Of a stretch of DNA of 64,000 bases, positions 2,645-48,475 are shown in pieces. The DNA comes from Candidatus Staskawiczbacteria bacterium RIFCSPHIGHO2_02_FULL_42_22 (GTDB taxonomy: Bacteria; Patescibacteriota; Minisyncoccia; Minisyncoccales; Staskawiczbacteraceae): positions 124-64,123 of the forward strand of contig MHOT01000012.1 in the NCBI GenBank assembly GCA_001820175.1, read 5' to 3'. Every line of letters starts with the position of its first letter. Within the stretch, counting starts at the first letter, position 1. The notes below the pieces were generated by a model. That model was not told where the DNA came from. It worked only from the letters and a program-made list of their open reading frames with translations, and ran no database searches. The position numbers and the translations under genes are program-made.

Positions 2645-3265
2645 ATGATTGAAGAAAAAAATACAATTATACCTTTTAGTAAGAATGCTACAGATATTCT
2701 TTATGGCATAGAAAAAAAATACAAATTAGAAGAAACTCGAGAGGAAACCATACAAAGGATTCATAATCATAAAATTCACAAAATTAATATTGTGGCTACT
2801 CTTGTAAGGAATTTTATATTGGAAGAAATCTCTAATACAGAATTTCTTGATGCTCTCCATAAAGAGTTGCATATCTCAAAAGAAGCGGTAAAAAATCTAG
2901 CTATAGATATAGTAGATAATTTAATCCCGTTATTAGAAAAAATTCCCGAAGATCAACTGGAAGAATATAATAGAAAAAAACGATCAAAAGAAAAAAATAA
3001 AGAAGCAGATGTTAAGAAAACAGAAAATAAAAAGGGGGAATTTCAAGAACAATTATTAAATAAAATAAGAGGCGATGTAAATATCCCGAAACCCGAACCG
3101 AAAGAAACACCAGCGACGCCCAACCTTAAAAAACCCGAAATTGAAGATGTGGAAGATAATGCAAAGGATATTCAACATGTCCAACAAAAAAAGGAGGAAA
3201 CCGTAGTCCCACCAACGCTAAAAGAAGAAAAGAAGGCAGATCCATACCAGGAACCTGTGGAATGA
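2645..3265 (+). CDS. hypothetical K/E-rich protein
   Basis: Long ORF in coding-dense region; highly charged, no recognisable motif. Confidence 0.3.
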   Translation: MIEEKNTIIPFSKNATDILYGIEKKYKLEETREETIQRIHNHKIHKINIVATLVRNFILEEISNTEFLDALHKELHISKEAVKNLAIDIVDNLIPLLEKIPEDQLEEYNRKKRSKEKNKEADVKKTENKKGEFQEQLLNKIRGDVNIPKPEPKETPATPNLKKPEIEDVEDNAKDIQHVQQKKEETVVPPTLKEEKKADPYQEPVE

Positions 3266-3730
3266 ATTTCTAATTGACCTAATCAAACCCCAATGAACAA
3301 TGAGCCAATTTCTAAAATCTACGACTTAGAAGAAAGAACAGCTAAATTTGGTGAAAACATAATAAAGTTTGCCAGAAAAATACCTAAAGATGTCATTACC
3401 TTACCTTTAATAAATCAGTTAGTAAAATCCGGCACCAGTGTGGGTGCTAATTACTGTGAAGCGGATGATGCTGAATCGAAACAGGATTTTAAACATAAAT
3501 TGGGAATTTGTAAAAAAGAGGCAAGGGAAACAAAACATTGGCTAAGAATGATTGTGATTGCCATACCAGAAATAGAAAAAGAAGCAAAAATACTTTGGCA
3601 AGAAGCTAAAGAATTAAATCTTATCTTTAATGCTATTATTAAAAAATTAAAATAAAGCCATTTTAGACATTCGGTATTCTAAATTAGGATTTGATTAGAA
3701 ATTAGGTTAATTAGAAATTAGAAATTGCAT
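3266..3730. mobile_element. AT-rich inverted-repeat cassette 1 carrying a four-helix-bundle gene
   Basis: Left arm ttctaattgacctaatcaaa (3268-3290) and right arm tttgattagaaattaggttaattagaaattagaa (3690-3726) are inverted copies flanking ORF 3293..3655. Confidence 0.5.
3293..3655 (+). CDS. four-helix-bundle protein (PF05635 / 23S rRNA intervening-sequence protein / Avd-like family)
   Basis: ~120 aa. Family hallmarks present: EERT.KFGENII.F, LINQLV.SGTSVGANYCEA and KQDFKHKLGICKKEARETKHWL. Confidence 0.65.
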   Translation: MNNEPISKIYDLEERTAKFGENIIKFARKIPKDVITLPLINQLVKSGTSVGANYCEADDAESKQDFKHKLGICKKEARETKHWLRMIVIAIPEIEKEAKILWQEAKELNLIFNAIIKKLK

Positions 3731-3756: not shown

Positions 3757-4146
3757 ATGGCACAATACTCCACTCCACAATTTACTGAAAGCGAAGGGAA
3801 AATTATTTCTTTCCTCACCTTTCGCCAATTTTTTGTCCTCGTTGGAGGAGGAGCGGTTTGTTTTGCGCTGTATTACACCCTGCCGTTTGCTCTTTTTTTG
3901 ATTTTAGGGATAATGGTGGCCACCATAACCGCGGCCATCGCATTTTTAAAAGTAAATAATACTTCAGTAGTAACCCTGGTACTTCACTTTATTACCTTTT
4001 CAATCGCCTCAAAAACGTATGTATGGAAGAAAAAAGAATCGGTATATCCTTTTGCTAGTAAGCGGTACGAGGCCAAGGATATGGAAGTGGGCGGCAAAAC
4101 CGCGCTGGATGCTACTAAAAAAATAGTAGAATACCGCAAGAAGTGA
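3757..4146 (+). CDS. VirB3/PrgI-like small membrane protein (T4SS-like locus)
   Basis: 129 aa with two adjacent TM helices (FFVLVGGGAVCFALYYTLPFALFLILGIMVATITAAIAF). Lies immediately upstream of VirB4, as VirB3/PrgI does in Gram-positive-type T4SS. Confidence 0.35.
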   Translation: MAQYSTPQFTESEGKIISFLTFRQFFVLVGGGAVCFALYYTLPFALFLILGIMVATITAAIAFLKVNNTSVVTLVLHFITFSIASKTYVWKKKESVYPFASKRYEAKDMEVGGKTALDATKKIVEYRKK

Positions 4147-4149
4147 ATT

Positions 4150-4650
4150 TATTTTTATTATGAATCTCGAATCTTGTATCTTGTAGCTTGAATAGAATAA
4201 AGAATCATGAATGATGACAATAAAATCAGAAGGTTTACCGATCTTCATGCTTGGCAAGAGGGGCATAAGTTAGTATTAATGGTCTATAGAAATACTGAAA
4301 CATTTCCCGATAAAGAAAGGTTTGGGATAATAGACCAAATGAGACGAGCTGTAATTTCTTTGACTTCTAATATAGCGGAGGGATTTTCAAGGAGGTCTTC
4401 AAAAGAAAAGAACAGGTTTTATTGCATGGCCCAGGCATCATTAGTAGAATTACAAAATCAACTTATTATTTCTAGAGATATTGGTTATTTATCAAATGAT
4501 GAATTTAAAATAATTGCAGATCAGTCAGTGGTGGCAAATAAACTGTTAAATGGACTCTTAAAAGCTACTAAAGATAAAAAATTTGAATCTTAGATTCTTA
4601 ATTCAAAATTCTATTCAAGCTACAAGATACAAGATTCAAGATTCACACAC
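4150..4650. mobile_element. AT-rich inverted-repeat cassette 2 carrying a four-helix-bundle gene
   Basis: gaatctcgaatcttgtatcttgtagcttgaatagaat (4160-4197) is mirrored by attctattcaagctacaagatacaagattcaagattc (4603-4641), flanking ORF 4207..4593. Confidence 0.55.
4207..4593 (+). CDS. four-helix-bundle protein (PF05635 family)
   Basis: 128 aa. Family motifs present: LTSNIAEGFSRRS..EK.RFY..A.AS..ELQNQL. Confidence 0.6.
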   Translation: MNDDNKIRRFTDLHAWQEGHKLVLMVYRNTETFPDKERFGIIDQMRRAVISLTSNIAEGFSRRSSKEKNRFYCMAQASLVELQNQLIISRDIGYLSNDEFKIIADQSVVANKLLNGLLKATKDKKFES

Positions 4651-4653
4651 ATT

Positions 4654-5328
4654 ATGGCAGAGCAATCAACTCAAGATTTTTTAGAATTCAAAGACATTAA
4701 AGAAGGTATTGTTATCCTTAAAAACAACGATATTCGGGGCGTTTTAATGGTCTCTTCCATTAATTTTGCCTTAAAGTCCGACGATGACCGCGCGGCCATC
4801 ATTTATGCCTTCCAGAATTTTTTAAATTCCCTGGATTTTCCCTGCCAGATTGTGGTGCAGTCAAAAAAAATCAACATCACCCGCTACTTAGACACCCTGC
4901 GCGCTCTGGAAGAAAAGCAAACCAACGAACTGCTTAAAATCCAAACTGCTTCATACATAGAGTTTATAAAAAACCTGGTGCAGGGTGATGCGGTTATGAC
5001 CAAAAACTTTTACGTTGTGGTGCCTTACGCCCTTACGGCAATCTTGGGTACTGGTGCTATTACCAAACAGTTCAATATTCCGGATTTATTGGGCAAAAAA
5101 AATAAGGCCGGCGGGCCGGTGCAATCCATCAGCGACGAGGACTTTGAAAAATGCAAAAACCAGCTTTGGCAACGAATGGAATTTTTGGCCCTTGGCTTAA
5201 AGCGTTGCGGATTAGACAGCGTGCCGCTTACCACCCCGGAATTAATTGAATTGTTCTGGTCACTACACCACCCAAGCGAAGCGGAAGTGGGGTATTCACC
5301 GGAGATAATACCGGAATTATTGAAATAA
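4654..5328 (+). CDS. VirB4-family ATPase, N-terminal segment (split gene)
   Basis: Shows the DIKEGIVILKNNDIRGVLMVSSINFALKSDDDRAAIIYAFQNFLNSLDFPCQIVVQSKK pattern typical of the N-terminal region of Gram-positive-type VirB4 (TcpF/Orf16-like). The stop codon abuts the left arm of cassette 3. Confidence 0.5.
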   Translation: MAEQSTQDFLEFKDIKEGIVILKNNDIRGVLMVSSINFALKSDDDRAAIIYAFQNFLNSLDFPCQIVVQSKKINITRYLDTLRALEEKQTNELLKIQTASYIEFIKNLVQGDAVMTKNFYVVVPYALTAILGTGAITKQFNIPDLLGKKNKAGGPVQSISDEDFEKCKNQLWQRMEFLALGLKRCGLDSVPLTTPELIELFWSLHHPSEAEVGYSPEIIPELLK

Positions 5329-5808
5329 TTCCGAATTATCAATTATCAATTTTCAAGTATCAATCAAGTTTTAAATTACTAAATTATCAATATGGAAAAG
5401 ATATTTGACCTAGAGGAAAGAACTATGGTTTTTGCAGAAAATATAATTGATTTAGTAAGATCAATAAAAAGTGACTCGGTAAATAATAGAATTATCACCC
5501 AATTAGTAGGTTCAAGTGGCTCTATCGGAGCAAATTATTGCGAAGCCACAGAAGGTGAAAGTAAAAAAGATTTTATTCATAAAATTGGCATCGCCAAAAA
5601 AGAAATAAAAGAAACCAAGCACTGGTTGCGATTATTAGCCAGAGCTAATCCTGAGAAAAAAGAAGAAATAAGAAAATTATGGAAAGAAGTACAAGAACTG
5701 CTATTAATATTCTCTAAAATAATCAGAAGCAGTAAAACCAACGCGATTGAAAATTAATTACTTGATCATTTATTGATACTTGAAAATTGATAATTGATAA
5801 TTAAGATC
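5329..5808. mobile_element. AT-rich inverted-repeat cassette 3 carrying a four-helix-bundle gene, inserted between the two VirB4 segments
   Basis: aattatcaattatcaattttcaagtatcaat (5335-5366) is mirrored by attgatacttgaaaattgataattgataatt (5771-5802), flanking ORF 5392..5757. Confidence 0.55.
5392..5757 (+). CDS. four-helix-bundle protein (PF05635 family)
   Basis: 121 aa. EERT..FAENII, SIGANYCEATEGESKKDFIHKIGIAKKEIKETKHWL; paralog of 3293..3655. Confidence 0.65.
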   Translation: MEKIFDLEERTMVFAENIIDLVRSIKSDSVNNRIITQLVGSSGSIGANYCEATEGESKKDFIHKIGIAKKEIKETKHWLRLLARANPEKKEEIRKLWKEVQELLLIFSKIIRSSKTNAIEN

Positions 5809-7611
5809 ATGGCTATTCCATTCTTCAAAAATAAAAAGGGGACAGAAATAGAAGAAGAAAAAATCTTTGGCCAAGACACCCTTAACATCAAGGACATCAT
5901 TGCTCCTCCTTACATTGGCATTACCCAGGATAATATTAAGCTGGGAGAAAAAATAGTAAAGTCATTTTTTATTTTCTCCTACCCCCGGTATATAAATACC
6001 GGCTGGCTGTCTCCGGCCATCAATCTGAATGTTCCCATGAACATTGCTTTTTTCATCCACCCGGTTGACAGTTCCCAGATTTTACGGAAATTGCGTTCAA
6101 AGGTGACCCAAGTTTCTTCAGAATTAATAGAGCGCCAGGAAAAGGGGCTTATCCGCGATCCGGCCCTTGAAACATCTTACCAAGACATTGAAAATTTACG
6201 GGATAAAATCACCACCGCCCAGGAAAAAATGTTTCAGTTCGGGCTGTATATTACTTTATTTGAAGAAAATCCTCAAACCCTCAAAGAAACTGAGGTAACC
6301 CTACGGTCTATTTTTGAATCACGGCTTATTTACATAAAACCGGCGCTCTTTAAACAAAAAGAGGGGTTTATTTCCACCCTTCCCTACGGTCTGGATATGC
6401 TTTCGGTTCACGTGCCCATGGACACCGACCCTTTATCCACTTCATTTCCTTTTATTTCGTTTGACTTAAGCTCAAATGAAGGGATTTTATACGGCATCAA
6501 CAACCATAATAATTCCCTGGTGCTCTTTGACCGCTTCACGCTGGAGAACGCAAACATGGTGGTCTTCGCAAAATCGGGATCCGGCAAGTCCTACGCCATA
6601 AAATTGGAAATTTTGCGCTACCTAATGTGGGGAATTGATGTTATTGTGGTAGACCCGGAAAACGAGTATGAATTTTTATCGGATGGCGTTGGGGGCGACT
6701 TTTTCAACATTTCCCTTACTTCAGATACCCATATTAACCCCTTTGACTTGCCTATGCCCGGAGCGGAAGAAAACCCCGAAGATATTTTGCGCTCTAACAT
6801 TATTAACTTGGTGGGGCTGTTGCGAATTATGCTTGGCGGATTGAGTGCAGAAGAAGATAGCATTGTCGACGAAGCCCTCACTGAAACCTACGCCATCCGC
6901 GATATTACGGCCCAATCAAACCCCGCCACCTGGCAGGAAAACATACCCGTTCTGTCCGACTTTGCGGAAATTTTGGAAAGCATGGCGGGAGCCGAATCGC
7001 TGGCCAGGCGCCTTAAAAAATTCACCCAGGGAACTTTTTCTGATTTTTTCAACCAAAAAACCAATATTGCCATGGATAAGCCATTTATTGTCTTTGGCAT
7101 CCGCGATATGGAAGAATCACTGCGGCCGGTGGCCCTTTTTATGGTCATGCGATACATTTGGAACACTATTCGCACCCACATCAAAAAGAGGATTTTAGTG
7201 GTGGACGAGGCCTGGTGGCTGACCCAGTCCGAAGACGGCGCTTCGTTTTTATTTAGCGTGGTAAAACGCGGCCGAAAATACTGGCTGGGGGTTACCACCA
7301 TCACCCAGGACGTAGAGGACTTTATGAAATCAAGTTATGGTAAGGCCATTATTACGAATTCCTCGCTGCAATTATTACTAAAACAATCACCGGCCACCAT
7401 TGACGTGATGCAAAATATATTCAATTTAACTGAACAGGAAAAAATGCTTCTTTTGGAAGCCAATGTAGGGGAGGGACTCTTTTTTGCCGGTAAAAAACAT
7501 GTCAGTATTAGTATAAAAGCCAGCTACACCGAAGACCAGATTATTACTACCAACCCGGGGGAGGTGGAAAAGATAAAGGAAGCTAAAAGGAAACTAAAGG
7601 AAAATCTATAA
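5794..7611 (+). CDS. virB4: VirB4/TraC/CagE-family T4SS ATPase (C-terminal, catalytic segment)
   Basis: Walker A VVFAKSGSGKSY, Walker B RILVVDEAWWL, motif VTTITQD. The N-terminal IIAPPYIGITQDNIKLGEKIVKSFFIFSYPRYINTGWLSPAINLN matches the conserved VirB4 region. The actual start is possibly the ATG at 5809. Confidence 0.8.
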   Translation: MIIKIMAIPFFKNKKGTEIEEEKIFGQDTLNIKDIIAPPYIGITQDNIKLGEKIVKSFFIFSYPRYINTGWLSPAINLNVPMNIAFFIHPVDSSQILRKLRSKVTQVSSELIERQEKGLIRDPALETSYQDIENLRDKITTAQEKMFQFGLYITLFEENPQTLKETEVTLRSIFESRLIYIKPALFKQKEGFISTLPYGLDMLSVHVPMDTDPLSTSFPFISFDLSSNEGILYGINNHNNSLVLFDRFTLENANMVVFAKSGSGKSYAIKLEILRYLMWGIDVIVVDPENEYEFLSDGVGGDFFNISLTSDTHINPFDLPMPGAEENPEDILRSNIINLVGLLRIMLGGLSAEEDSIVDEALTETYAIRDITAQSNPATWQENIPVLSDFAEILESMAGAESLARRLKKFTQGTFSDFFNQKTNIAMDKPFIVFGIRDMEESLRPVALFMVMRYIWNTIRTHIKKRILVVDEAWWLTQSEDGASFLFSVVKRGRKYWLGVTTITQDVEDFMKSSYGKAIITNSSLQLLLKQSPATIDVMQNIFNLTEQEKMLLLEANVGEGLFFAGKKHVSISIKASYTEDQIITTNPGEVEKIKEAKRKLKENL

Positions 7612-7721
7612 TTAAATTCGAAGCACGAAATCCGAAATACGAAACAAATTCAAATGTTCAAAATCTAAATTTTCAAAACTTGTTTCGAATTTCGACATTC
7701 GAATTTCGAGTTTGGTAAGTT
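7612..7721. repeat. AT-rich inverted repeat spacer
   Basis: cgaaatccgaaatacgaaacaa mirrored by ttgtttcgaatttcgacattcgaatttcg; no ORF inside. Confidence 0.5.
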
Positions 7722-8342: not shown

Positions 8343-8532
8343 CCGCGGCCCTATGGACATCACATCCAGAAACCGCACTCCAAGTCTTGCCGGATTTGCC
8401 AATCTTGGGCAGTTTTCACAAAAAATTTGTTCGGCGTAGCTACGGCTAGGCCTTACAAATTTTTTGCTCCAAGCCGCCCAATATTGCGAAACCGTCGGCA
8501 ACTTTAGTGCGGTTTCTGGATGTGATGTCCAT
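8343..8532. repeat. family-B MITE-like element (27-bp TIR atggacatcacatccagaaaccgcact), copy 1
   Basis: Perfect terminal inverted repeats. The internal sequence is the reverse complement of copy 32318..32497. Flanked by TA on both sides. Confidence 0.7.
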
Positions 8533-8540
8533 AACAACCC

Positions 8541-13525: not shown

Positions 13526-14596
13526 GGTATAAAGGTAGGTAACTTGTTGCTAATTTTTGAAGTAGATATACCACTTAAAGAAATCCTTTCGCCTGCCCTT
13601 TAACAATCCGCGATGTTGTCGGTAAATAATTTTTAATCTTGAAAAATATCCCTCGATCTTGTTCGTGGTTGAAGGAATATTTTTATCTTTTAAATAATGG
13701 AACATGCTCGGCAGAGCGTTTATCAATAAATTTCTGGTTGCTTTAAGATCGCTGAAAACTTTATCCTTTGAAGACAGGAGGTTCACCGATTTTCCGTATT
13801 TCCTTTCCCATTTTTGAAAAGTATTTAAGAATATTTTTTTACCTCTTTCATTTTTAATTTTTGTAACAGATAGCAATATATCTCTTAATTTCTTGCTGGC
13901 CTCCAGCTTTGGATTTCTTCTTAACCATGATAACCCCTGCCGTTGAATGTGTGCCAAACATCTTTGTATGATAATATCTGGCCAGACATCTTTAATGGCC
14001 CTCATTACGCTTGTATTGCCATCTACCGTGATAGCCATGGGCATAATGCCGCAGCTCTTTGACTCTTCAAAAATTGATCTTGCATATTCGTAATTTTCTC
14101 TGATACAATATTTATGATTTACGATTTTACCATTCGAATTGTCTATTAGCACCATTAGACAATTTTCATGTTTGAAATATGTCCCATCAAAAAGTAAATA
14201 TTTTATTTGATGGTAATTTAGAGTTTTTTTATCCGGCGCTTTGTTCATCCAAAAAGATAATATTTGTTTTATCTTCCAAATTCCACGACGGCTAATACTG
14301 ACTAATTGCCTTGCCGAATAACCCTCAACAATCCACAGCTCAAACCATTTTCTTTCGTTAAATTCCTTGTTCTTGCGATTATGAAAAGTGTAGGTGTGCT
14401 TACAAATTTTACATCTATACCTCTGGTAACCGCATGAAGTGCGACCAAATAATTTAACATTCAAAGAACCACACTTTAGACAACTTTTTTTTCATAATAT
14501 TGAACTGATTTGATATTATTCCAGATTTTAATTGTAATTTACTCTCAAATTAGCACGAAATCCGCATTTTTAGCAACAAGTTACCTACCTTTATAC
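13526..14596 (-). mobile_element. IS1595-family-like insertion sequence with 27-bp perfect TIRs and 8-bp target duplication
   Basis: TIR gtataaaggtaggtaacttgttgctaa at 13527-13553, with its reverse complement at 14570-14596. The direct repeat tcattgcg occurs at 13518-13525 and 14597-14604. There is a single transposase ORF. Confidence 0.7.
13550..14464 (-). CDS. transposase (N-terminal zinc ribbon plus DDE domain; IS1595-like)
   Basis: C..C...C..C near the N-terminus (CGYQRYRCKICKH). DDE-region motifs LFDGTYF, ITVDGNTSVMRAIKDVWPD and TNKIEGYFSRLK. Length 304 aa. Confidence 0.7.
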   Translation of the reverse strand: MNVKLFGRTSCGYQRYRCKICKHTYTFHNRKNKEFNERKWFELWIVEGYSARQLVSISRRGIWKIKQILSFWMNKAPDKKTLNYHQIKYLLFDGTYFKHENCLMVLIDNSNGKIVNHKYCIRENYEYARSIFEESKSCGIMPMAITVDGNTSVMRAIKDVWPDIIIQRCLAHIQRQGLSWLRRNPKLEASKKLRDILLSVTKIKNERGKKIFLNTFQKWERKYGKSVNLLSSKDKVFSDLKATRNLLINALPSMFHYLKDKNIPSTTNKIEGYFSRLKIIYRQHRGLLKGRRKDFFKWYIYFKN

Positions 14597-15253: not shown

Positions 15254-15410
15254 GACCTGTTGCGTATTAAGGATTTACTGCAAATTGCATATTTCGGCCA
15301 TAAATTTGCTATAATTTTTCGGCGGGCCCTCTAGGCAAGCCGAAAAATTCTATCAAATTTCTGGCTCAAAATCTTCAATTTTCGTAACAATCCTTAATAC
15401 GCAACAGGTC
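15254..15410. repeat. family-C MITE-like element (conserved core ttttcggcgggccctctaggcaagccgaaaaattctatcaaattt, self-complementary termini), copy 1
   Basis: Termini are gacctgttgcgtattaaggatt and aatccttaatacgcaacaggtc. TA on both flanks. Confidence 0.65.
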
Positions 15411-15451: not shown

Positions 15452-15550
15452 CTCGTCGTCATTGCGAGCGAGCGGCCGCAGCCGCGAGCGCGGCAATCTC
15501 CTTTTTTTTACGGGGATTGCTTCGGGCCTGCGGGTCCTCGCAATGACGAG
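15452..15550. repeat. GC-rich palindromic element overlapping the 3' end of yidC
   Basis: cgtcgtcattgcgagcgagcggccgcagccgcgagcgcggcaatctcc...ggggattgcttcgggcctgcgggtcctcgcaatgacgag. The yidC stop codon (15508) lies inside the element. Confidence 0.65.
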
Positions 15551-16287
15551 ATAGGGGGAATTACTTTTATATTTTTTGATCTTTTGAGAATAAACCATTG
15601 CTGCGCCATGGAAAATAATCCGCTTACAATCCAATATAGTCCCAGCGCCGATGGTAATTTTATAAGAATAATCACGGTAATAATAGGAAAAAGATATACC
15701 ATTTGTTTTTGCATCATGGATGCAATATCAGGGCCACTTTTTGCCACCCCCTTAATTGTCTTGGGAAGCAGCATTTTTGTTTGAAAAAATTGTACGGCTC
15801 CCGCCAACACTGCAAATATCATATTAGGGTCGCCTAGGTTAATAAGCCCCAGAAACATTGTGTTAATCTGCACGGGGTTTACCACAAATTGATATAAATG
15901 AGAAAGCTCTTCTGGTTTTAATCCATTCCAAAATACCCGATACAGGGCGATAAGAATAGGGAGTTGTATCAAGGCCAAAAAAAGGCCTGAAAACGGGTTT
16001 ATCTTTTCCCTGCGGTATAATTCCAGGGTCTCTTTGGCTTGCTTTTCCTTATCGTCTTTATATTTTTTTTGCAGTTCCCGCAACTGCGGCTGCAATTTTT
16101 GCATAGCCGCCTGAGAGGCAACGGCTTTCACTGAAAGCGGATAGATAATAATCCGAATAATCACTGTAAGAATAATAATAGCGATGCCAAAATCGTGGCC
16201 AGGCACATAATTATAAATAATCACCAGGAAATTAAAGAGGGGAAAGTATAAAAAAAAATCGAAAAAATTTACAATAAATTGGAACAT
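15508..16287 (-). CDS. yidC: membrane protein insertase YidC (short form); last ~18 codons encoded by a GC-rich repeat
   Basis: Multi-TM Oxa1/YidC pattern with conserved loop PQLRELQKKYKDDKEKQAKETLELYRREKINPFSG. The C-terminus ...SLRGPAGPKQSP is read from the repeat. Confidence 0.8.
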   Translation of the reverse strand: MFQFIVNFFDFFLYFPLFNFLVIIYNYVPGHDFGIAIIILTVIIRIIIYPLSVKAVASQAAMQKLQPQLRELQKKYKDDKEKQAKETLELYRREKINPFSGLFLALIQLPILIALYRVFWNGLKPEELSHLYQFVVNPVQINTMFLGLINLGDPNMIFAVLAGAVQFFQTKMLLPKTIKGVAKSGPDIASMMQKQMVYLFPIITVIILIKLPSALGLYWIVSGLFSMAQQWFILKRSKNIKVIPPISSLRGPAGPKQSP

Positions 16288-16440
16288 TATTACTTAATTT
16301 CTAATTATTCTAATTATTCTAATTAACCTAATCAAATATCAATAACTAAAATACTTAAATCCTAAAACGGTTTAGAGATTAGGTATTCACTTATTGGATA
16401 TTGATTAGAATAATTAGGTTAATTAGAAATTAGAATAATT
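16288..16440. repeat. AT-rich inverted-repeat spacer (empty cassette-like) between yidC and rnpA
   Basis: ttctaattattctaattattctaattaacctaatcaaat is mirrored by attgattagaataattaggttaattagaaattagaataatt. Same sequence style as the arms of cassette 1. Confidence 0.55.
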
Positions 16441-16779
16441 TTATATTATTCCCATCTTTCTAAAAGAATCACTGACGGTTTTCTGTATCTCTAAAAACTC
16501 TCTTTTCTCGATTCCAGCCAAACTAATAACAATAACATCAAATGATCCGTTTAATTCCCCCAATAAACCCGCAACTGCGTCTCGTAATCTCCTTTTTACC
16601 CTATTGCGTACTACGGCTTTTGGTGAAACCTTCTTACTGACCACAAAACCAAAGCGACTGGAAGGTAAATTATTTTTCACAGCTTTTACCAGTAAAAAAT
16701 CCTGCTTGACGCCCTTTCCCCCAGTAAAAACCTTATCGAAATCCTTTTTTTTGGTAAGTCGGTTTATTTTTGGCAACAC
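16441..16779 (-). CDS. rnpA: ribonuclease P protein component
   Basis: 112-aa basic protein with the RNR motif (RNRVKRRLRDA). Sits between rpmH and yidC. Confidence 0.75.
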   Translation of the reverse strand: MLPKINRLTKKKDFDKVFTGGKGVKQDFLLVKAVKNNLPSSRFGFVVSKKVSPKAVVRNRVKRRLRDAVAGLLGELNGSFDVIVISLAGIEKREFLEIQKTVSDSFRKMGII

Positions 16780-16899
16780 TTCTGCAAATTATCAATTATC
16801 AATTTTCAATGACCAATTTTCAATAACGGCGTCAATTGATAATTAGATAATTTAGAAATTGATTGATACTTGATAATTGATAATTGATAATTTCCACAT
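16780..16899. repeat. AT-rich inverted-repeat spacer between rnpA and rpmH
   Basis: tatcaattatcaattttcaatgaccaattttcaat is mirrored by attgatacttgataattgataattgataatt. Same sequence style as the arms of cassette 3. Confidence 0.55.
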
Positions 16900-17034
16900 T
16901 TACACCGAAAGCTTCTTCCTTCCCTTAGCTCTTCTTCGCGCCAAAACCTGTTTGCCTTTCTTGGTTTGCTTGCGCACTAAAAAACCGTGGGTTTTTTTTC
17001 TTTTTTTCTTCTTGGGGTTATACGTAAAACTCAT
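16900..17034 (-). CDS. rpmH: 50S ribosomal protein L34
   Basis: Hand translation of the minus strand gives [44 protein letters not shown]. Missed by the ORF track (below the length cutoff). Confidence 0.85.
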
Positions 17035-17296
17035 AATTGTATAATTCTCTTAATTAATATAATATGGTTACTATAGTATAAAAAAATCCCCGAGTCAATT
17101 GTGTAATTGCGCGTTTAATTTATTGTGCGTCTACCTTAAAATGTATCACACATATTATCCCCATCTTATCAACAACCTAGGTTTATTCTATTTTAATTTG
17201 ACTCGCGGGTTCAGTATTTGATATTTATATTATATAGTTTCTAAAAAAATAACTGCGTAATTTTGCGTTAATTTCCGCGTTTTTGCGCGACCATGT
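17035..17296. promoter_or_regulatory. dnaA upstream region with candidate DnaA boxes (oriC candidate)
   Basis: TTATCCCCA and TTATCAACA (17171-17193) each differ from TTATCCACA by one base. Divergent rpmH/dnaA arrangement. Confidence 0.45.
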
Positions 17297-18655
17297 ATGG
17301 ACCACAACGAACTCTGGCAACAAGTGCTGGCACAAATGCAATTTCATATTTCCAAGGCAAATTTTGCCACGTGGTTTCAAAATACCGAAATTATTTTAAG
17401 AGAAGATGAAAAGATGGTCATTTCCGTACCCAATGCTTTTTCTAAAGAATGGCTGAAGAACAAATATTATAAACTTATTCTCAAAACTATCCATACTACA
17501 GATAATTCTATAAAAGAATTGGAGTTTGTTATTAAACCTCAGTTATTAAAAAAAATTGACCAGAAAGAGGATACTAAAAAACCAGAAATAGAAACCGGGC
17601 AATTAAAATTTGAAGAGTTTAAGGTAAACAAAGAAACTAATTTAAATCCGCGCTACACCTTTGAAAATTTTGTCGTCGGATCATTTAATGAGCTGGCGTA
17701 TTCGGCCAGCTTGGCGATTTCAGAAAATGTCGGGACTGTGTACAACCCCTTATTTATTTATGGCGGCGTCGGTTTGGGAAAAACCCATTTAATACAGGCC
17801 ATTGGAAATAAAATACATGACAGCCCCAAAAAAAAGAAGGTAAAGTATATTTCCTGTGAAAAATTTGTTTCGAGCATTGTGTCGGGAATACGAAACCATA
17901 ATATTGATATTTTTAAAGCAAGTTTGTCTTTAATTGACGTATTAATTATTGACGACATCCAGTTTTTGGCAGGAAAAGATAAAACCCAGGAAGAATTCTT
18001 CCACACTTTTAATTCTCTATACGAAAAAAATAAACAAATCATTCTTTCTTCTGATCGGCCGCCCAACGCCATTCCTGAACTAGAAGAACGCCTGCGATCG
18101 CGTTTTGAAGGCGGAATGATCACCGACATTAGTCTACCGGATTATGAAACACGGCTTGCTATTTTAAAAACAAAGCTTCAAGAAAAAAATCTAAAACTAC
18201 CCGAAGATGTATTAGAATACGTCGCTTCTAACGTAAAAAAGAATATCAGGGAATTAGAAGGGGCCCTTAATAGTTTATTAATATATTATAAAACCAACAC
18301 CTCAATTCCTAACCTTGAAACAACTAAAAGATTATTGAAAAATTTTGTATTTTCTCCCTTTAATGTGGCAAATTACAAAAAAATCATTGAAATTGTTTCT
18401 AAATTTTATAATTTAGATGAAAAAACGATTTTTAACCCGACCCGCCGCAAAGAAATTGTTAGGCCCCGGCAAATTGCCATGTTTTTATTAAGAGAAGAAT
18501 TAAAATACTCCTTCCCGGCCATTGCCCGTAAATTTGGCGGAAAAGACCACACCACCGTGATTTACGCCCATAAAAAAATACTCCAAGAATGCCAACAAAA
18601 TAATAAACTCACTGAAGAATTAAATATGATAAAACAAAAAGTATATAGTGGTTAA
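17297..18655 (+). CDS. dnaA: chromosomal replication initiator DnaA
   Basis: AAA+ Walker A GGVGLGKTHLIQAIGN, Walker B LIIDDIQFL, sensor motifs, C-terminal DNA-binding domain. Confidence 0.9.
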   Translation: MDHNELWQQVLAQMQFHISKANFATWFQNTEIILREDEKMVISVPNAFSKEWLKNKYYKLILKTIHTTDNSIKELEFVIKPQLLKKIDQKEDTKKPEIETGQLKFEEFKVNKETNLNPRYTFENFVVGSFNELAYSASLAISENVGTVYNPLFIYGGVGLGKTHLIQAIGNKIHDSPKKKKVKYISCEKFVSSIVSGIRNHNIDIFKASLSLIDVLIIDDIQFLAGKDKTQEEFFHTFNSLYEKNKQIILSSDRPPNAIPELEERLRSRFEGGMITDISLPDYETRLAILKTKLQEKNLKLPEDVLEYVASNVKKNIRELEGALNSLLIYYKTNTSIPNLETTKRLLKNFVFSPFNVANYKKIIEIVSKFYNLDEKTIFNPTRRKEIVRPRQIAMFLLREELKYSFPAIARKFGGKDHTTVIYAHKKILQECQQNNKLTEELNMIKQKVYSG

Positions 18656-18689
18656 GCAACCCCTCACGCCCCACATAACCCCTCACGCC

Positions 18690-18975
18690 CCCACCGTCAT
18701 TGCGAGGCACACTGAAGCAATCCCCGTACAAAACGACGAGATTGCCACGTCGCTTGCGAGCTCCTTGCAATGAAGACACTGGGTCACTGATCCTATTTTA
18801 CACTTTTTGATTAGGGGGTGTGAGGGGTTACCGCCTCACCACCATCACTACCGTCATTGCGAGGAATCCGCAGATTCCGTGGCAATCCCTCAATAATACG
18901 ACTAGATTGTCCCGATGGTGGAGCCATCGAGGATCCTCGATAGAATCGGGACTGCGGGCCCTCGTAATAACAGTA
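18690..18975. repeat. cluster of GC-rich palindromic elements (3 units)
   Basis: ccgtcattgcgaggcacactgaagcaatcc..., cgtcattgcgaggaatccgcagattccgtggcaatcc... and attgtcccgatggtggagccatcgaggatcctcgat...atcgggact. Confidence 0.65.
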
Positions 18976-24271: not shown

Positions 24272-24395
24272 GAAAATTTGAAATTTGAAATTTTCAATTT
24301 GAAATCAATATTAAATGTCTAAATGATTAAATTTGAAAACACGGCATCGTTTTTTAATCATTTCAAATTCACTTTTTTCAAATTGATTTCAAATT

Positions 24396-32254: not shown

Positions 32255-32317
32255 TGTTTTATCTATAAGTGTAGTACATTTCATGGGCATTGTTGGAGGG
32301 AGTCAATCATGAGCACT

Positions 32318-36446: not shown

Positions 36447-36461
36447 TCTGAAGGGGATATG

Positions 36462-36500: not shown

Positions 36501-36514
36501 ATAATAAGGTTTAT

Positions 36515-37045
36515 ATGAAATTATCACTGACAGATAAATTTTTATGGGATCTTTATGTTGTCCTTGAAAAAACAGGGGATATTACGGCTTTTATATTAAA
36601 TCCTCATTCGTCAAAATGGAATTCTTTATGGCAGCTAAACAATCCTGTTTTTGAAAAATATAAACACGATAAAAATAGGGCAAAATTCAGTAAATTAATA
36701 TATTACCTTAAAAGAAATAATTATATAAAAGTCGCAAGTTTGAATAATGTGAGGGGTGTTGTGCTTACAAAAGAGGGGTTGGGTAAAATATTGAAGGCAA
36801 GTTTTAAAATTGAAAAGAAAAATAAAAGAAAAGATGGTAAATGGGTAATGCTGATTTTTGATATTCCTCAAAAATACAAGAAATCAAGAGAACTATTGAG
36901 GGGTGTATTGCACAACTTAGGATATAAATTACTGCAACAGAGCGTTTGGGTAACCCCATATGATGTTTCAGAAAAAACAGAGAAATTATTACAATTTTAT
37001 TCGTTGGATAATTTTGTAAAATTATTTTTAATAGAAGAAATGTAG
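36515..37045 (+). CDS. PaaX-like transcriptional regulator (wHTH plus Cas2-fold PaaX_C domain)
   Basis: C-terminal KWVMLIFDIPQKYKKSRELLRGVLHNLGYKLLQQSVWVTPYDV matches the PaaX_C pattern W..L.YDIPE..R..R..L...GF..LQ.SVWV.P. Confidence 0.5.
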   Translation: MKLSLTDKFLWDLYVVLEKTGDITAFILNPHSSKWNSLWQLNNPVFEKYKHDKNRAKFSKLIYYLKRNNYIKVASLNNVRGVVLTKEGLGKILKASFKIEKKNKRKDGKWVMLIFDIPQKYKKSRELLRGVLHNLGYKLLQQSVWVTPYDVSEKTEKLLQFYSLDNFVKLFLIEEM

Positions 37046-37082: not shown

Positions 37083-37107
37083 AAAAATATTATGATAAAA
37101 TGATGTT

Positions 37108-45917: not shown

Positions 45918-48017
45918 TTACTCATTTTTCAATTTTTCTAATAAATCGCGGATTTTCGCTGCCCGTTCAAAATCCATATTTTTGGCGGCGATTTTCATTT
46001 CTTTTTCCAATAACTTTTTATCCTGCACGGCGTCAAATTCTGAAATAACATCTTCTTTTTTGGAAAACCCCCAATCGCGTACATCTTTGATGATGGCCGT
46101 GGGAGTAATACGATGTTTTTTATTGTATGCTTCCTGAATTTTTCTTCTGCGGTTTATTTCATCAATGGCCGATTTCATGGAACCAGTAATAGAATCGCCA
46201 TACAAAATAACCCTTCCATACTGGTGGCGCGCCGCCCGGCCCATGGTTTGAATTAAGGTGGTTTTATTCCGCAAAAACCCTTCTTTGTCGGCATCTAAAA
46301 TGGCAACCAATGCAACTTCGGGCAAGTCCAACCCTTCTCGCAATAGGTTAATTCCTACGAGAACGTCAAATTTTCCCTGTCGGAAATTTTTTAACACCTC
46401 GGGCCGCTCCATCGTTTTTATTTCTGAATGCAGGTATTGGGCTTTGACGTTTCTTTCTGCCAGGTAATCAGAAATTTCTTCAGCCAGGCGTTTGGTCAAA
46501 GTAATTACCAGCACACGGTGTTTTTTGGCCACCTCTTTTTTAATTTCGGCCAGCAGGTCTTTAATTTGGTTTTCGGTTTTTTTCACTTCTATGGAAGGTT
46601 CGAGTAACCCGGTTGGCCTGATAATTTGTTCAATCACCTCTTTGCCGGATTTTTGAAGTTCGTAATCAGCTGGTGTGGCCGACACATAAATTGACTGTTT
46701 TTCCCGTTCGGTAAATTCCTGGAACCTTAGGGGCCGATTATCAATGGCCGAAGGCAGGCGAAAACCAAAATCGATCAAGGTTTCTTTGCGTATTTTATCT
46801 CCAATGGCCATGGCTTTAATTTGAGGAAGCGAAATGTGGGACTCGTCGATGAAAATTAAAAATCCGTCATTTGTGTTGTCTGAGATTGCCACGTCGCCGC
46901 GCGCCCGCGGGCGCGCGGCTCCTGAGTCGGGAACTCCCGTTACGCGGGAAGTTCTCGCGACTTTGCGCAATGACGAAGAACGGGTGGCATAATTAAAATA
47001 ATCAACCAAAGAAAATGGCGGGGTTCCTGCTTTTCTGAATTCCAATTGGCTGGAATAATTTTCAATGCCCTGGCACCAACCGGTTTCTTTGAGCATTTCC
47101 AGGTCGTAGTTAGTTTTTTGCTCCAAGCGTTGGTATTCCACTAATTTATTTTGTTTTTTTAATTCTTTGAGCCGTTCTTGTAATTCCAGTTTTATATTTT
47201 CAAGGGCAATGGGAAGGGTGTCTTGGGGCGCGGCCCAGAAGGTGGCGGGGTATAGTGTGAAGCTTGAATCTTGTATCTTGAAGCTTGTATTCGGGCCACT
47301 TTGTGAAACGGAAATTTTCTGGATGGTATTACCATTAAATTCTATCCTTAATATTTTTTCTCCGGTCACCAAATATATTTCAACTATTTCTCCGCGCACC
47401 CGAAAGGTGGCCGGTTTAAAATCAATATCATTTCGTTTGTATTGCAGTAAAATAAGGTGGGAAATAAAATCCTTGCGGGTTATTTTTTGATTTGGTTTTA
47501 TATTCCAACTAACTTTTTGGTAGTTTTCCGGCGACCCAATGTTATAAATACAACTTACGGATGCCACCACAATAACATCTTTTCGCTGCAGTACATCTTG
47601 GGCGGCGGAATGTCGCAGGCGGTCAATTTCCTGGTTTATCTTGGCATCTTTTTCTATATAGGTATCGGTCTGGGGAATATATGCTTCTGGTTGGTAGTAA
47701 TCGTAATACGATACAAAATAGTGCACGCCATTGTTGGGAAAAAATTCCTTCATTTCTTGGTAAAGTTGCGCGGCCAGGGTTTTGTTACAAGCTACTATAA
47801 GAGTAGGTTTTTGGTATTTGGAAATGACTTGGGCCATGGTAAAAGTCTTGCCGGATCCGGTAACGCCCAAAAGCACCTGGTGTTTTTTGCCTTTTTTTAA
47901 ATTTTCGGTCAGTTTTTTAATGGCCTGGGGCTGATCGCCCGTGGGGGTGTATTTTGATATTATTTTGAATTCCATGGTAGTATATGTGTAGCGTGAAGCG
48001 CATAGCGCAGAACGCAA
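45918..48017 (-). CDS. uvrB: excinuclease ABC subunit B, carrying an in-frame repeat-element insertion
   Basis: Walker A GVTGSGKTFTMAQVI, helicase motifs, C-terminal UVR domain. There are ~36 extra codons (TRSSSLRKVARTSRVTGVPDSGAARPRARGDVAISD) between PPFSLVDYF and the FIDESH motif. Confidence 0.85.
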   Translation of the reverse strand: MRSALCASRYTYTTMEFKIISKYTPTGDQPQAIKKLTENLKKGKKHQVLLGVTGSGKTFTMAQVISKYQKPTLIVACNKTLAAQLYQEMKEFFPNNGVHYFVSYYDYYQPEAYIPQTDTYIEKDAKINQEIDRLRHSAAQDVLQRKDVIVVASVSCIYNIGSPENYQKVSWNIKPNQKITRKDFISHLILLQYKRNDIDFKPATFRVRGEIVEIYLVTGEKILRIEFNGNTIQKISVSQSGPNTSFKIQDSSFTLYPATFWAAPQDTLPIALENIKLELQERLKELKKQNKLVEYQRLEQKTNYDLEMLKETGWCQGIENYSSQLEFRKAGTPPFSLVDYFNYATRSSSLRKVARTSRVTGVPDSGAARPRARGDVAISDNTNDGFLIFIDESHISLPQIKAMAIGDKIRKETLIDFGFRLPSAIDNRPLRFQEFTEREKQSIYVSATPADYELQKSGKEVIEQIIRPTGLLEPSIEVKKTENQIKDLLAEIKKEVAKKHRVLVITLTKRLAEEISDYLAERNVKAQYLHSEIKTMERPEVLKNFRQGKFDVLVGINLLREGLDLPEVALVAILDADKEGFLRNKTTLIQTMGRAARHQYGRVILYGDSITGSMKSAIDEINRRRKIQEAYNKKHRITPTAIIKDVRDWGFSKKEDVISEFDAVQDKKLLEKEMKIAAKNMDFERAAKIRDLLEKLKNE
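46882..46976. repeat. GC-rich palindromic element inserted in frame within uvrB
   Basis: gagattgccacgtcgccgcgcgcccgcgggcgcgcggctcctgagtcgggaactcccgttacgcgggaagttctcgcgactttgcgcaatgacga. Confidence 0.65.
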
Positions 48018-48068
48018 AAAAAGCTACGCGTTACACGTTTCGTTACACGATCGTTATACGCGAAAACT

Positions 48069-48284
48069 ATGGATGATAAAAATGGTTTTCATGCACAACT
48101 TTACGCTTTGATGGATGATTTTGTGCTTGATGTTTATTCTGTGAGTAAAAATTTTCCAAAAGACGAATTATACGGTGTTACCTCGCAATTAAGGAGAGCC
48201 ACATTATCTGTAATTTTAAACTATATAGAAGGTTATGCAAGGAGAAGAGACAAAGTTTACAAGAATTGTTTAGAAATTTCATAA
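48069..48284 (+). pseudogene. truncated four-helix-bundle (PF05635) gene fragment
   Basis: 71-aa ORF with LSVILNYIEGYARR motif; the rest of the family fold is missing. Confidence 0.35.
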
Positions 48285-48475
48285 GGTTCCTTAAAAGAGG
48301 CAAAGTATCTGATATATTTTAGTTGTCGCCAAGGATATATAACCAAAGAAGATGAAAAAAAGTTATTAGTTTTATCCGAAAGAATTGGAAAAATGTTATG
48401 GGGAATTATTGTAAAAATATAAAATTAGTGCGTTAAGTTTAAGCGTTCTGCGCTACGCGCTCCACGTTCTGCAAA

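Follow-up and report, generated by a model that had tools for sequence, protein, structure and literature searches.

The closest described systems are the intervening sequences (IVSs) of rRNA genes. The 23S IVS of Coxiella has a 28-bp terminal stem and heptameric repeats before the ATG of its S23p gene, and its excision by RNase III has been demonstrated; ORF-bearing 23S IVSs also occur in Leptospira, Brucella and Xanthomonas, according to the Coxiella IVS paper. In the rRNA genes of CPR bacteria, 23S_rRNA_IVP ORFs lie in insertions of both the 16S and the 23S gene, and all GIY-YIG proteins are encoded by insertions that resemble neither class of intron. PF05635 genes have also been reported inside cas operons, for example between cmr3 and cmr2 in Pleurocapsa PCC 7327. 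On the side of the host genes, the relevant precedent is the T4SS of the MPF-FATA type (prototype pGO1), in which TrsD, an N-terminal homologue of VirB4 of about 220 aa, is encoded directly upstream of the VirB4 ATPase gene (TrsE). The adjacency of trsD and virB4 has already been published for 2,221 Patescibacteria assemblies (PMC12102498).

The stretch of DNA that we analysed, here called the window (64,000 nt), holds an origin-proximal chromosomal T4SS operon of a Parcubacteria-type (Patescibacteria) bacterium. The operon follows the MPF-FATA plan, with trsD directly upstream of the ATPase gene, a PrgI/VirB3-like gene upstream of both (3757..4146, + strand; PF12666 PrgI, E=2.2e-6, 28.5 bits, cut-off 27) and a pilin-like gene downstream. 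Nothing essential sets it apart from these systems; the arrangement is the same, with a cassette in the spacer. The first of the two ORFs (4654..5328, + strand, 224 aa) matches TrsD/TraD and the N-terminal parts of VirB4 models in NCBIfam, where it corresponds to positions 4-118 of the CD1110 VirB4 model; its match to NF041427 TrsD (E=9e-6) is, at 25.6 bits, under the curated cut-off of 200 bits. Its homologues number more than 7,700, the best 120 of which are all 216-228 aa long, and PF26593 TraC-like is precomputed for every homologue listed in that size range. We identify the product of this ORF as TrsD, a T4SS component that stands alone and is homologous to the N-terminal domain of VirB4. 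The second ORF (5794..7611, + strand) encodes the ATPase proper, together with the rest of the VirB4 N-terminal block. Its true start is the ATG at 5809 (gene 5809..7611, 600 aa), from which the product opens with MAIPFF, resembling the MDLPF and MKLPFF starts of relatives. It corresponds to positions 167-734 of the CD1110 VirB4 model (NF045971, 363.6 bits, over the cut-off of 325) and contains the P-loop C-terminal domain of VirB4 that a two-gene TrsD/VirB4 module should have (PDB 4ag5, E=2e-42; PF19044 and P-loop_TraG are also matched).

The spacer between these two genes is occupied by a hairpin cassette, which we call cassette 3. Its left arm (5334-5385, + strand) is built of the tandem heptamers AATTATC AATTATC AATTTTC AAGTATC AATCAAG, and its right arm lies at 5751-5802 (+ strand); the arms are 52 nt long, 83% complementary and 365 nt apart. 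They enclose IVP3 (5392..5757, + strand), a four-helix-bundle cargo gene of the PF05635/TIGR02436 family (PF05635, E=1.4e-17, 64 bits, cut-off 33.8; TIGR02436, E=9e-24; PDB 2rld, E=1.6e-13). The stop codon of trsD (5326-5328) is 5 nt upstream of the left arm, and the ATG of virB4 is 6 nt past the right arm. The predicted RNA fold of the cassette has a free energy of -103.9 kcal/mol (z=-4.96, with 0/100 shuffles as good), and the arms pair as its terminal stem in the MFE structure and in the centroid alike. A 23-mer core of the arm recurs exactly at 16787 and, on the minus strand, at 5780. Long direct repeats are absent from positions 5100-6000 around the cassette. An initial annotation of this DNA had described the two ORFs with a PF05635 gene between them, the enclosing inverted repeats as the bounds of a discrete, mobile-looking unit, and the stop and start codons at its two edges. 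That description is accurate in each respect, as is the likeness it drew to PF05635-bearing rRNA intervening sequences, which share the architecture of a long stem with an ORF in its loop.

Cassette 3 is one of three intact cassettes in consecutive T4SS spacers of the window, which also holds one decayed copy and cargo-less hairpins. Cassette 1 (3265..3727, + strand) lies upstream of prgI, in the spacer that follows a 206-aa gene, with arms at about 3265-3301 and 3676-3727 (inverted repeats 3265-3283/3701-3719, 95%, and 3279-3301/3676-3698) around IVP1 (3293..3655, + strand, 120 aa; PF05635, E=8.9e-14). The cassette at the TrsD|VirB4 junction of a related genome, L001, has the same arm type, TTCTAATTGACCTAAT, and IVP1 together with its arm type matches that junction cassette at 65%. 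Cassette 2 (4146..4653, + strand) has 52-nt arms at 4161-4212 and 4594-4645 that are 88% complementary, and carries IVP2 (4207..4593, + strand, 128 aa; PF05635, E=1e-31), whose start codon lies inside the stem; its RNA fold is predicted at -134 kcal/mol (z=-6.12), and its stem shows covariation. Further hairpins lack a gene. One fills the spacer after virB4 (7612..7721, + strand), with CGAAATN heptamer arms and a fold of -25.7 kcal/mol (z=-4.5). Another lies between yidC and rnpA (16288..16440, - strand; -44.1 kcal/mol, z=-10.4), with an arm type like that of cassette 1 and an inverted repeat at 16295-16326/16401-16432 (91%). A third, upstream of rnpA (16780..16900, - strand), belongs to the element family of cassette 3, with which it has an exact 23-mer in common; read in the orientation of the host operon, its sequence follows the left arm of cassette 3 as far as the position of the IVP ATG and then runs into a GC-rich loop.

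A survey of the TrsD|VirB4 junction in relatives (78 junctions, 75 distinct) places cassette 3 in context. Most of the distinct junctions (46/75) are bare, with a spacer of -1 to 44 nt and no repeat. Twenty of the 75 have a hairpin without a gene, and nine have a hairpin-bracketed cargo gene (four IVP, three PDDEXK_3 and two GIY-YIG). Among spacers of middle length, 20 of the 21 scored fold with z values of -1.6 to -9.7. In no distinct junction are trsD and virB4 fused, and in every genome, those with 11-nt spacers included, a stop codon closes the upstream ORF and a separate ATG opens the downstream one. Judging from these junctions, from the TrsD homologues and from the published adjacency, two separate genes are the ancestral state in this lineage, normally about 4-25 nt apart. 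We think it likely that selfish, horizontally spreading hairpin cassettes colonised this pre-existing spacer, which normally lies between two genes, together with two spacers upstream.

The cassettes form a family with a common build, in which inverted arms of 30-55 nt, composed of tandem heptamers, surround one small gene. Three families of cargo occur: the PF05635 four-helix bundle (IVP), a GxxExxY/PDDEXK_3 nuclease or a GIY-YIG nuclease. Elements come and go at a single junction, and non-orthologous cassettes share the site across relatives. Where different genomes carry an IVP at the same junction, the proteins share only 53% and 33% identity and their arms are unrelated; unrelated hairpin families (GTCATT... 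and TGTCATTCCCGCG...) replace each other at the same site; and bare and solo-hairpin junctions differ between close relatives with 86% flank identity. Relatives of IVP3 (n=74, 41-83% identity, most 55-83%) span Parcubacteria, Microgenomates and a few non-CPR genomes, and adjoin many unrelated genes. About a third of the loci in this clade have arms that do not score above shuffled controls. In 53/53 cases the cargo gene is read in the direction of the operon, and the upstream neighbour is co-oriented in 55/57 independent loci. A cargo dN/dS of 0.02-0.19 indicates strong purifying selection, the values being approximate because dS is saturated in most pairs.

The resemblance to rRNA intervening sequences is extensive. 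Both are about 430-500 nt long, with complementary termini that form a long stem and one PF05635 ORF in the loop, and both have tandem heptamers in the part of the stem that immediately precedes the ORF (in Coxiella, GACAGAT). Both are sporadic and horizontally spread, and the non-intron insertions in CPR rRNA likewise include GIY-YIG genes. Unlike rRNA IVSs, however, the cassettes of the window sit in spacers of protein-coding operons rather than in rRNA helices. Rfam finds no rRNA in the window, none of the 66 scorable IVP3-clade loci lies in rRNA, and there is none at the nine loci of this clade that lack a nearby upstream ORF. The cargo is under strong purifying selection here, whereas S23p of Coxiella is decaying; the third cargo family (GxxExxY/PDDEXK_3) and the abundant solo hairpins are further differences; and excision by RNase III, demonstrated in Coxiella, is for these cassettes a prediction by analogy. 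IVS-type hairpin cassettes reach beyond rRNA and are common in the operon spacers of Patescibacteria, where they carry three families of cargo, pass from one lineage to another and leave hairpins devoid of cargo. With them, a large body of comparative data becomes available on a type of element that has been puzzling in its origin, mobility and protein function since the early 1990s.

The arms themselves are constrained. They are 75-100% identical between relatives, compared with 20-67% at four-fold sites, and in the L001 orthologue of cassette 2, whose IVP is 89% identical, the arms are 95% identical against 53% at four-fold sites. Double changes affect 9/34 stem pairs, and in a covariation test based on six sequences we count 16 covarying cells against 7.6 +/- 2.0 in shuffles (0/500), a signal that collapses in slid controls. 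The heptameric register is evident from lag-7 self-identities of 0.64 and 0.49 (vs 0.35) and from CAA cores in 7-nt register at 38/66 loci, compared with 0/66 shuffles, and arm type tracks cargo clade. Selection at the RNA level is not supported: on the sense strand, 55 distinct stems have 48 G.U and 74 A.C mismatches, with no excess of the former, and the covarying helix has hardly any one-sided G.U states. This pattern of mismatches fits maintenance at the DNA level better than selection on pairing of the sense RNA, and the palindrome is probably maintained as DNA.

We propose the following course of events. Single-gene cassettes bracketed by hairpins would insert into existing, transcribed operon spacers. 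The cassette presumably has no promoter of its own and is co-transcribed with the host operon. In the transcript, the long stem would bring the upstream stop and the downstream start close together and would be a natural substrate for RNase III, so that the RNA is probably cut at the stem, as in 23S rRNA intervening sequences. By this analogy RNase III processing of cassette transcripts is plausible; the window itself holds no rnc gene. Since the flanks are separate genes, the cut ends would not have to be re-joined, and nothing points to splicing or ligation. The heptamer arrays are putative recognition sites and could, more tentatively, be bound by the cargo protein.

Alternatively, the hairpins may be purely DNA-level palindromic mobile elements, MITE-like or of the homing type, whose RNA stem is incidental and unprocessed and in which the IVP is one cargo variant; movement would then occur in trans or through nuclease cargo. 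We regard this as possible but not probable. The absence of a sense-strand G.U excess and the double changes without wobble intermediates agree with it, as do the nuclease folds of two of the three cargo families, which are folds used by homing endonucleases. The cassettes share terminal inverted repeats with MITEs and insertion sequences. Like MITEs and REP/BIME elements, the hairpins are short palindromes dispersed in the genome, as the recurring arm core illustrates, and they lie intergenically between co-directional genes; the solo forms resemble non-autonomous derivatives and recall the relationship of MITEs to their parents. Against this reading, we find no target-site duplication, in that comparison of bare and occupied junctions reveals no direct repeat at element boundaries, and no transposase or RAYT was identified: the cassettes contain no transposase, and the window has only a Mutator-family fragment (13550-14464). 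The elements also differ from MITE and REP/BIME sequences in having many heptamer-array arm families, each tied to a cargo clade, and in holding protein-coding cargo in strict orientation, a bias that is unexpected for a DNA-only element. Moreover, a near-perfect mRNA duplex of 36-50 bp would, to judge from the IVSs, be hard to hide from RNase III. Free-standing homing endonuclease genes and intron-less homing cassettes offer a second comparison, being small selfish GIY-YIG and PD-(D/E)XK genes between host genes, with a patchy distribution and horizontal spread. The cassettes here differ from them in the long inverted repeats that bracket them and in their commonest cargo, the IVP, which has no known nuclease fold. 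An integron gene cassette was considered and rejected, as arms flank the gene on both sides, in place of a single attC hairpin at the 3' end, and a scan of window ORFs with a length of at least 100 aa yielded no integrase.

It is less probable, and in our judgement unlikely, that the hairpins are operon punctuation of benefit to the host, setting the stoichiometry of T4SS subunits as processing, stabilising or decoupling sites, with the small genes as secondary passengers or domesticated factors. Hairpins do occupy four consecutive T4SS spacers and both sides of rnpA, these host operons are origin-proximal and highly expressed, and the arm sequence is constrained. Punctuation of this kind is difficult to reconcile, however, with the patchiness among close relatives and with the mutual replacement of unrelated arm families at one site.

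We give very little credence to the idea that the PF05635 proteins are dedicated accessory subunits or regulators of the T4SS, or DGR Avd proteins. Three copies do lie within one T4SS operon, and IVP2 has a weak bAvd/DGR-Avd match. Yet their presence and position vary by genome, nucleases replace IVPs at the same junction, IVP3-clade genes neighbour many kinds of unrelated gene, and a decayed copy lies beside ruvA. The Avd identification was rejected: the scores, obtained for IVP2 only, are 21.4 bits against a cut-off of 40 (bAvd) and 21.8 against 80 (DivGenRetAVD), the window has no reverse transcriptase, and positions 5100-6000 lack the long direct repeats that a TR/VR pair would form. The cas-operon genes of Pleurocapsa are comparable in that an IVP gene is wedged into an unrelated operon in the same orientation; unlike here, the text of that report that concerns them reads this as a functional association with nucleases and makes no mention of inverted repeats. 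Our results advise caution against 'guilt by association' for PF05635 genes inside cas, T4SS or other operons.

The initial annotation had suggested, as one of two readings, that the cassette entered an intact virB4 and divided it, the halves being tolerated as two polypeptides. Part of its case stands. The upstream ORF is homologous to the N-terminal region of VirB4, through the NCBIfam VirB4 models and through P0196, a fused 797-aa homologue from a distant relative, with which it aligns over residues 8-213 (38% identity, 9e-46). The downstream ORF aligns with residues 214-793 of the same protein (51% identity), so that the two are adjacent, non-overlapping parts that abut exactly at the position of the cassette. 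Nevertheless, a split is highly improbable. The annotation itself named, as an outcome that would count against it, relatives sharing the two-gene arrangement without inverted repeats; the 46 bare junctions are of this kind, and the two genes are separate at every distinct junction. Stand-alone TrsD is widespread and already published, and the two sister cassettes of the same operon separate unrelated genes. Among the best 150 TrsD cluster representatives, the 797-aa protein is the one evident full-length fusion; the remainder mostly measure about 190-260 aa, with roughly a quarter at 280-443 aa. Because the two-gene arrangement is known and normal, a disrupted-virB4 label is inappropriate in annotation. 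The companion proposal in its strong form, a true intervening sequence whose removal by RNA splicing or translational bypass yields one full-length VirB4, can be dismissed as next to impossible: the stem would place the trsD stop within a few nucleotides of the virB4 ATG and excised rRNA IVSs are where the PF05635 family was first described, but the papers on the Coxiella IVS and on CPR rRNA insertions describe cleavage without ligation, Rfam matches no intron or ribozyme in the window (tmRNA alone is found), and the separate stop and start codons persist in every genome. A group I or II intron or an intein was rejected on the same Rfam result and on the separateness of the flanking genes in all relatives.

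A broader reading of the family is conceivable but doubtful. PF05635, GxxExxY and small GIY-YIG proteins might all be cargo of one unified class of transcript-riding hairpins, with heptamers that bind their own cargo protein. If so, the class would colonise any transcribed site at which cutting without re-joining is harmless, such as the tips of rRNA helices and operon spacers. The pentameric four-helix-bundle protein would be the long-sought factor for maintenance or mobility of the IVS, with roughly one heptamer per subunit, and a 30-year-old puzzle, the nature of the IVS and the role of S23p/IVP, would be explained.

Two further elements of the window lie near ruv genes. Between uvrB(-) and ruvA(+), a decayed cassette found by HMM match (47992..48466, + strand) retains 29-nt arms (47992-48020/48438-48466, 86%) around a frameshifted IVP pseudogene, which is recognisable at 48069-48284 and continues out of frame to about 48422. 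Between ruvC and a yebC-like gene lies a solo hairpin (24272..24395, - strand) with 56-nt arms of GAAATTT heptamers and a predicted fold of z=-4.8; the same arm family brackets IVPs in another genome, L006.

The two open reading frames on either side of the cassette are adjacent parts of VirB4, as the initial annotation had proposed. When aligned to P0196, a fused 797-aa VirB4 homologue obtained in a search of cluster representatives, the upstream ORF (the TrsD gene) covers residues 8-213 with 38% identity (9e-46) and the downstream ATPase ORF covers residues 214-793 with 51% identity, in contiguous, non-overlapping segments. On the NCBIfam model of CD1110 VirB4 the two cover positions 4-118 and 167-734, respectively, the ATPase ORF exceeding the curated cut-off. 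The C-terminal domain also finds a match in 4ag5, a VirB4 domain of solved structure, and the upstream ORF matches the TrsD/TraD family of NCBIfam as well. A sequence search of the PDB with the upstream ORF returned chance-level matches only, and its homology is therefore shown through the fused homologue and the NCBIfam profiles. This ORF also matched no profile in a local copy of Pfam, though PF26593 is precomputed for its homologues.

Gene boundaries at this junction hold for the upstream ORF (4654..5328, 224 aa), the 121-aa gene that follows it (5392..5757) and the end of the ATPase ORF at 7611. The start assigned to the ATPase ORF does not: position 5794 is a TTG inside the right arm, called by the ORF finder. 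Since relatives begin at a position equivalent to the ATG at 5809, 6 nt past that arm, we take 5809 as the real start. The small gene clearly encodes a four-helix-bundle protein of PF05635 (Pfam E=1.4e-17; NCBIfam TIGR02436 E=9e-24; PDB 2rld E=1.6e-13), and the predicted inverted repeats are present as arms of 52 nt, 83% complementary, at 5334-5385 and 5751-5802. The left arm begins 5 nt downstream of the TrsD stop codon (5326-5328). The predicted RNA fold of 5320-5815 has the terminal stem in both the minimum free energy and centroid structures (-103.9 kcal/mol, z=-4.96). A perfect 10-bp palindrome, CGGAATTATT/AATAATTCCG, lies across the TrsD stop codon at 5312-5333; its first half is conserved coding sequence for PELL(K), and its post-stop TAATTCCGAA is also found in locus L001, where the junction cassette differs.

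The proposal that this cassette split a virB4 gene is not borne out. We sampled TrsD-VirB4 junctions from T4SS loci of related genomes (8 loci from exact-protein look-up, 80 from a scan of metagenomes), of which 78 were scorable and 75 distinct; none carries a fused trsD-virB4. The two genes are separated by -1 to 44 nt (mostly 4-25) in 46 bare junctions, by mid-length spacers of 72-148 nt in 20, and by long spacers of 433-505 nt, each with a gene flanked by inverted arms, in 9. Nearly all mid-length spacers scored (20 of 21) fold as hairpins, with z from -1.6 to -9.7. Relatives with the two-gene arrangement and no repeats, which the initial annotation had named beforehand as refuting a split, are thus plentiful in this survey. 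Because bare two-gene junctions occur and none of the 75 is fused, the cassette sits in a pre-existing intergenic spacer. The idea that the insert is removed to restore one gene is likewise wrong, as its flanks are separate genes; its IVS-like, mobile nature was correctly recognized.

A two-gene VirB4, TrsD plus VirB4, is in fact a known arrangement. The 2025 survey of Patescibacteria T4SS describes TrsD as 'remotely homologous to the N-terminal portion of VirB4' and reports it in 2,221 of 3,035 Patescibacteria assemblies, mostly adjoining virB4 (PMC12102498). Our search returned more than 7,700 TrsD homologues. The best 120 are all stand-alone proteins of 216-228 aa from Parcubacteria/Patescibacteria; among the best 150 representatives there is one evident full-length fusion, most others being about 190-260 aa and roughly a quarter 280-443 aa. 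The same survey places Patescibacteria T4SS near dnaA, dnaN and rnpA (PMC12102498), and the window agrees exactly with this pattern: it spans the chromosomal origin region, with yidC, rnpA, dnaA and dnaN at 15508-20363, and carries a tmRNA gene at 61868-62217.

The TrsD-VirB4 insert (cassette 3) is not unique, as two spacers upstream of it hold sister cassettes. Their PF05635 genes are IVP1 (3293..3655) and IVP2 (4207..4593), the latter between 52-nt arms at 4161-4212 and 4594-4645 that are 88% complementary (fold z=-6.12). A gene-less hairpin occupies the spacer after virB4 (7612-7721). Further solo hairpins flank rnpA (16288-16440 and 16780-16900) and lie at 24272-24395 and near 60878-60982, and a frameshifted IVP with arms is found at 47992-48466. 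At related TrsD-VirB4 junctions the cargo also changes in kind: L001, L003 and L012 carry an IVP there, as the window does; L075 and L087, and in decayed form L067, have a GxxExxY/PDDEXK_3 nuclease; and L009 and L011 have a GIY-YIG nuclease of 96 aa.

Several comparisons bear on mobility. IVP3, the cargo of cassette 3, is 53% identical to the IVP at the same junction in L001 and 33% to that in L003, and the arms are unrelated, whereas the host TrsD proteins of these loci are 81-83% identical; the same-junction cassettes are therefore not orthologous. It is IVP1 of the window, together with its arm type, that resembles the L001 junction cassette (65%). Junction state differs between close relatives at about 85% flank identity. 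An exact copy of the 23-nt arm core of cassette 3 lies at 16787, where a solo hairpin, read in host-operon orientation, matches the cassette 3 left arm nearly base for base until the IVP start and then has a short GC-rich loop in place of the ORF. A scan of reference genomes with IVP3 alone as query found proteins of its clade in 74, in Parcubacteria and Microgenomates lineages and a few non-CPR genomes. These are 41-83% identical to IVP3 (most 55-83%), a similarity far above what vertical descent would allow. In occupied junctions the element takes up the entire spacer, and junction comparison revealed no target-site duplication at its boundaries. A search for transposase, integrase, reverse transcriptase and RNase III among the window's large ORFs yielded only a Mutator-type fragment. 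This 304-aa ORF (13550-14464, minus strand), directly downstream of a giant pilin-like T4SS gene, has weak matches to Mutator, MULE and IS66 transposases and is probably an IS remnant.

The loops of solo hairpins at 16780-16900, 16288-16440 and 24272-24395, and in the junction spacers of L006, L007 and L059, hold a short GC-rich patch (for example ACGGCGTC, CCCGCCGTG, CACGACGAG or CACGCGC) in elements that are otherwise very AT-rich. It lies where cassettes carry their ORF and may be the scar of a deletion or serve as a recognition site.

Both gene and arms are constrained. Purifying selection on the cargo genes is strong, with dN/dS of 0.02-0.19 against 0.07 for host TrsD, although dS is largely saturated. 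Between orthologous cassettes the non-coding arms are 75-100% identical, compared with 20-67% at four-fold degenerate sites of the enclosed gene. In the cassette-2 family, compensatory double changes occur in 9 of 34 genuine stem pairs; double changes fill 16 cells versus 7.6 +/- 2.0 after shuffling (0/500) and 0-6 in slid registers. The inner 'helix 2' of this alignment contains an artificial linker and is to be disregarded. The arms are heptamer arrays, with lag-7 self-identity of 0.64 and 0.49 versus about 0.35 for other lags and shuffles, and their type tracks the clade of the cargo. In the IVP3 clade, CAAT/CAA cores repeat at 7-nt intervals (38 of 66 loci versus 0 of 66 shuffles), and a GC-rich Phycisphaerae genome shows them too. 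CTTG/CAAG cores mark the arms of the IVP2 clade, GCTACTAATTTACTAAT-type arms are common to several PDDEXK_3 cassettes, and GIY-YIG genes have GTCATTGCGAGG arms. The direction of the cargo hardly varies: the 53 cargo genes in T4SS loci all lie along the operon, and the upstream neighbour points the same way in 55 of the 57 cases from an independent genome set. In that set, strand-symmetric alignment scored the arms above every shuffled-flank control in 67% of loci. A flank-duplex energy screen was confounded by arms from neighbouring cassettes and was set aside.

A promoter scan found promoter-like sites no commoner than chance, and in a terminator scan the long hairpins, having no T-run, were not terminator-like. 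Lacking an evident promoter and lying in a constant orientation behind a host gene, a cassette would most simply be transcribed by read-through from that gene. The transcript would then carry a duplex of 36-50 bp, the foot of which would bring the upstream stop next to the downstream start. We think that RNase III probably cuts the stems, as the anatomy is that of ORF-bearing 23S rRNA IVSs; this would free the cargo mRNA and separate the host cistrons. With separate genes on the two sides, cutting without ligation would do no harm.

We do not claim RNA-level selection on the arms. Among 55 distinct stems from the window and L001-L088, sense-strand G.U mismatches (48) are not enriched over A.C (74), and the difference (binomial p=0.02) is opposite to the prediction of sense-RNA selection; mutation bias could account for the A.C excess, as could constraints on the antisense strand or on the DNA. 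In the covarying helix, wobble states on one side alone hardly occur. These counts and states suggest that complementarity is maintained at the level of DNA, or by a factor requiring strict Watson-Crick pairing. At the DNA level, the arms could be kept matched through template switching or conversion between them, or because the element must form a DNA hairpin.

In anatomy the cassettes resemble the ORF-bearing 23S rRNA IVSs. That of Coxiella is 428 nt long; it has a 28-bp terminal stem, and tandem GACAGAT heptamers lead directly up to the S23p ATG. RNase III excises it, and the ends are not ligated. In CPR rRNA genes, 23S_rRNA_IVP ORFs turned up in both 16S and 23S insertions, and all GIY-YIG proteins were encoded by insertions resembling neither intron class. 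The window cassettes share the IVS anatomy but not the defining location: the window contains no rRNA, and none of the 66 scorable IVP3-clade loci is in rRNA. Nor are the cassettes introns, integron cassettes, DGR Avd genes or classical MITEs. A 2013 account reads PF05635 genes wedged between cas genes as functional partners; on the present data, they may show the same squatting behaviour. The supplementary tables of the T4SS survey make no mention of PF05635, TIGR02436 or PDDEXK_3 (PMC12102498). A literature search of incomplete coverage turned up no account of PF05635, GxxExxY or GIY-YIG cassettes bracketed by hairpins in mRNA spacers, an absence that is weak evidence. As far as we can tell, this family in operon spacers is a novel form of an already known type of element. 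Of ordinary interest for T4SS biology, the cassettes offer a useful, testable handle on what IVS elements and their proteins are.

A Shine-Dalgarno-like motif lies within 20 nt upstream of only 1 of 24 confident gene starts in the window, so that initiation of translation here is essentially independent of such motifs. The heptamer arms of cassette 3 yield a 10/12 sigma-70-like match, TTGATA-17-GATAAT, at 5773-5801 (+), mirrored at 5363-5335 (-); promoter-like sites overall occur at chance frequency. The plus-strand match ends 7 nt upstream of the virB4 ATG at 5809, and would give a nearly leaderless virB4 transcript in this host without Shine-Dalgarno motifs.

Other palindromes are dispersed through the window. 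An element of about 180 nt has three copies (8352-8533, 32317-32498 and 56494-56681). Besides an inner inverted repeat it has outer arms TATGGACATCACATCCAGAAACCGCACT / AGTGCGGTTTCTGGATGTGATGTCCATA, whose complementarity is 100% in two of the copies; its GC content exceeds that of the sequence around it, and it creates spurious ORFs with a 'DCFVA..LLAMT'-type peptide. Hairpins of the TGTCATTCCCGCGAAAGCGGGAATCCAG...CTGGATTCCCGCTTTCGCGGGAATGACA family lie at 49158-49230 and 57406-57478, and since this hairpin is the solo occupant of the TrsD-VirB4 spacer in L069 and L077, unrelated hairpin families compete for the same spacers. Palindromes of the form GTCATTGCGAGG...CCTCGCAATGAC are solo in the window (18656-18827 and 38347-38574), occur also in L009, L011, L028, L034 and L062, and form the inner arms around the 96-aa GIY-YIG gene in L009 and L011. 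In L009, outer arms of the GAAATTT type enclose them in turn, a nesting that suggests they inserted into the loop of a hairpin already present. A hairpin with 37-nt arms (TTTCGGCC.AAATTTGC.ATAATTTTTCGGCGGGCC / GGCAAGCCGAAAAATTCTATCAAATTT...) is present at 15292-15370, 23043-23120 and 28109-28187. Finally, within 36459-37090, copies of a near-perfect 38-nt palindrome (TATACTCTAAATTCCGAAGCTTCGGAATTTAGAGTATA) stand on both sides of 36515..37045, a gene whose 176-aa product has a PaaX central Cas2-like domain; this may be another bracketed small-gene unit or simply a gene between paired terminators.
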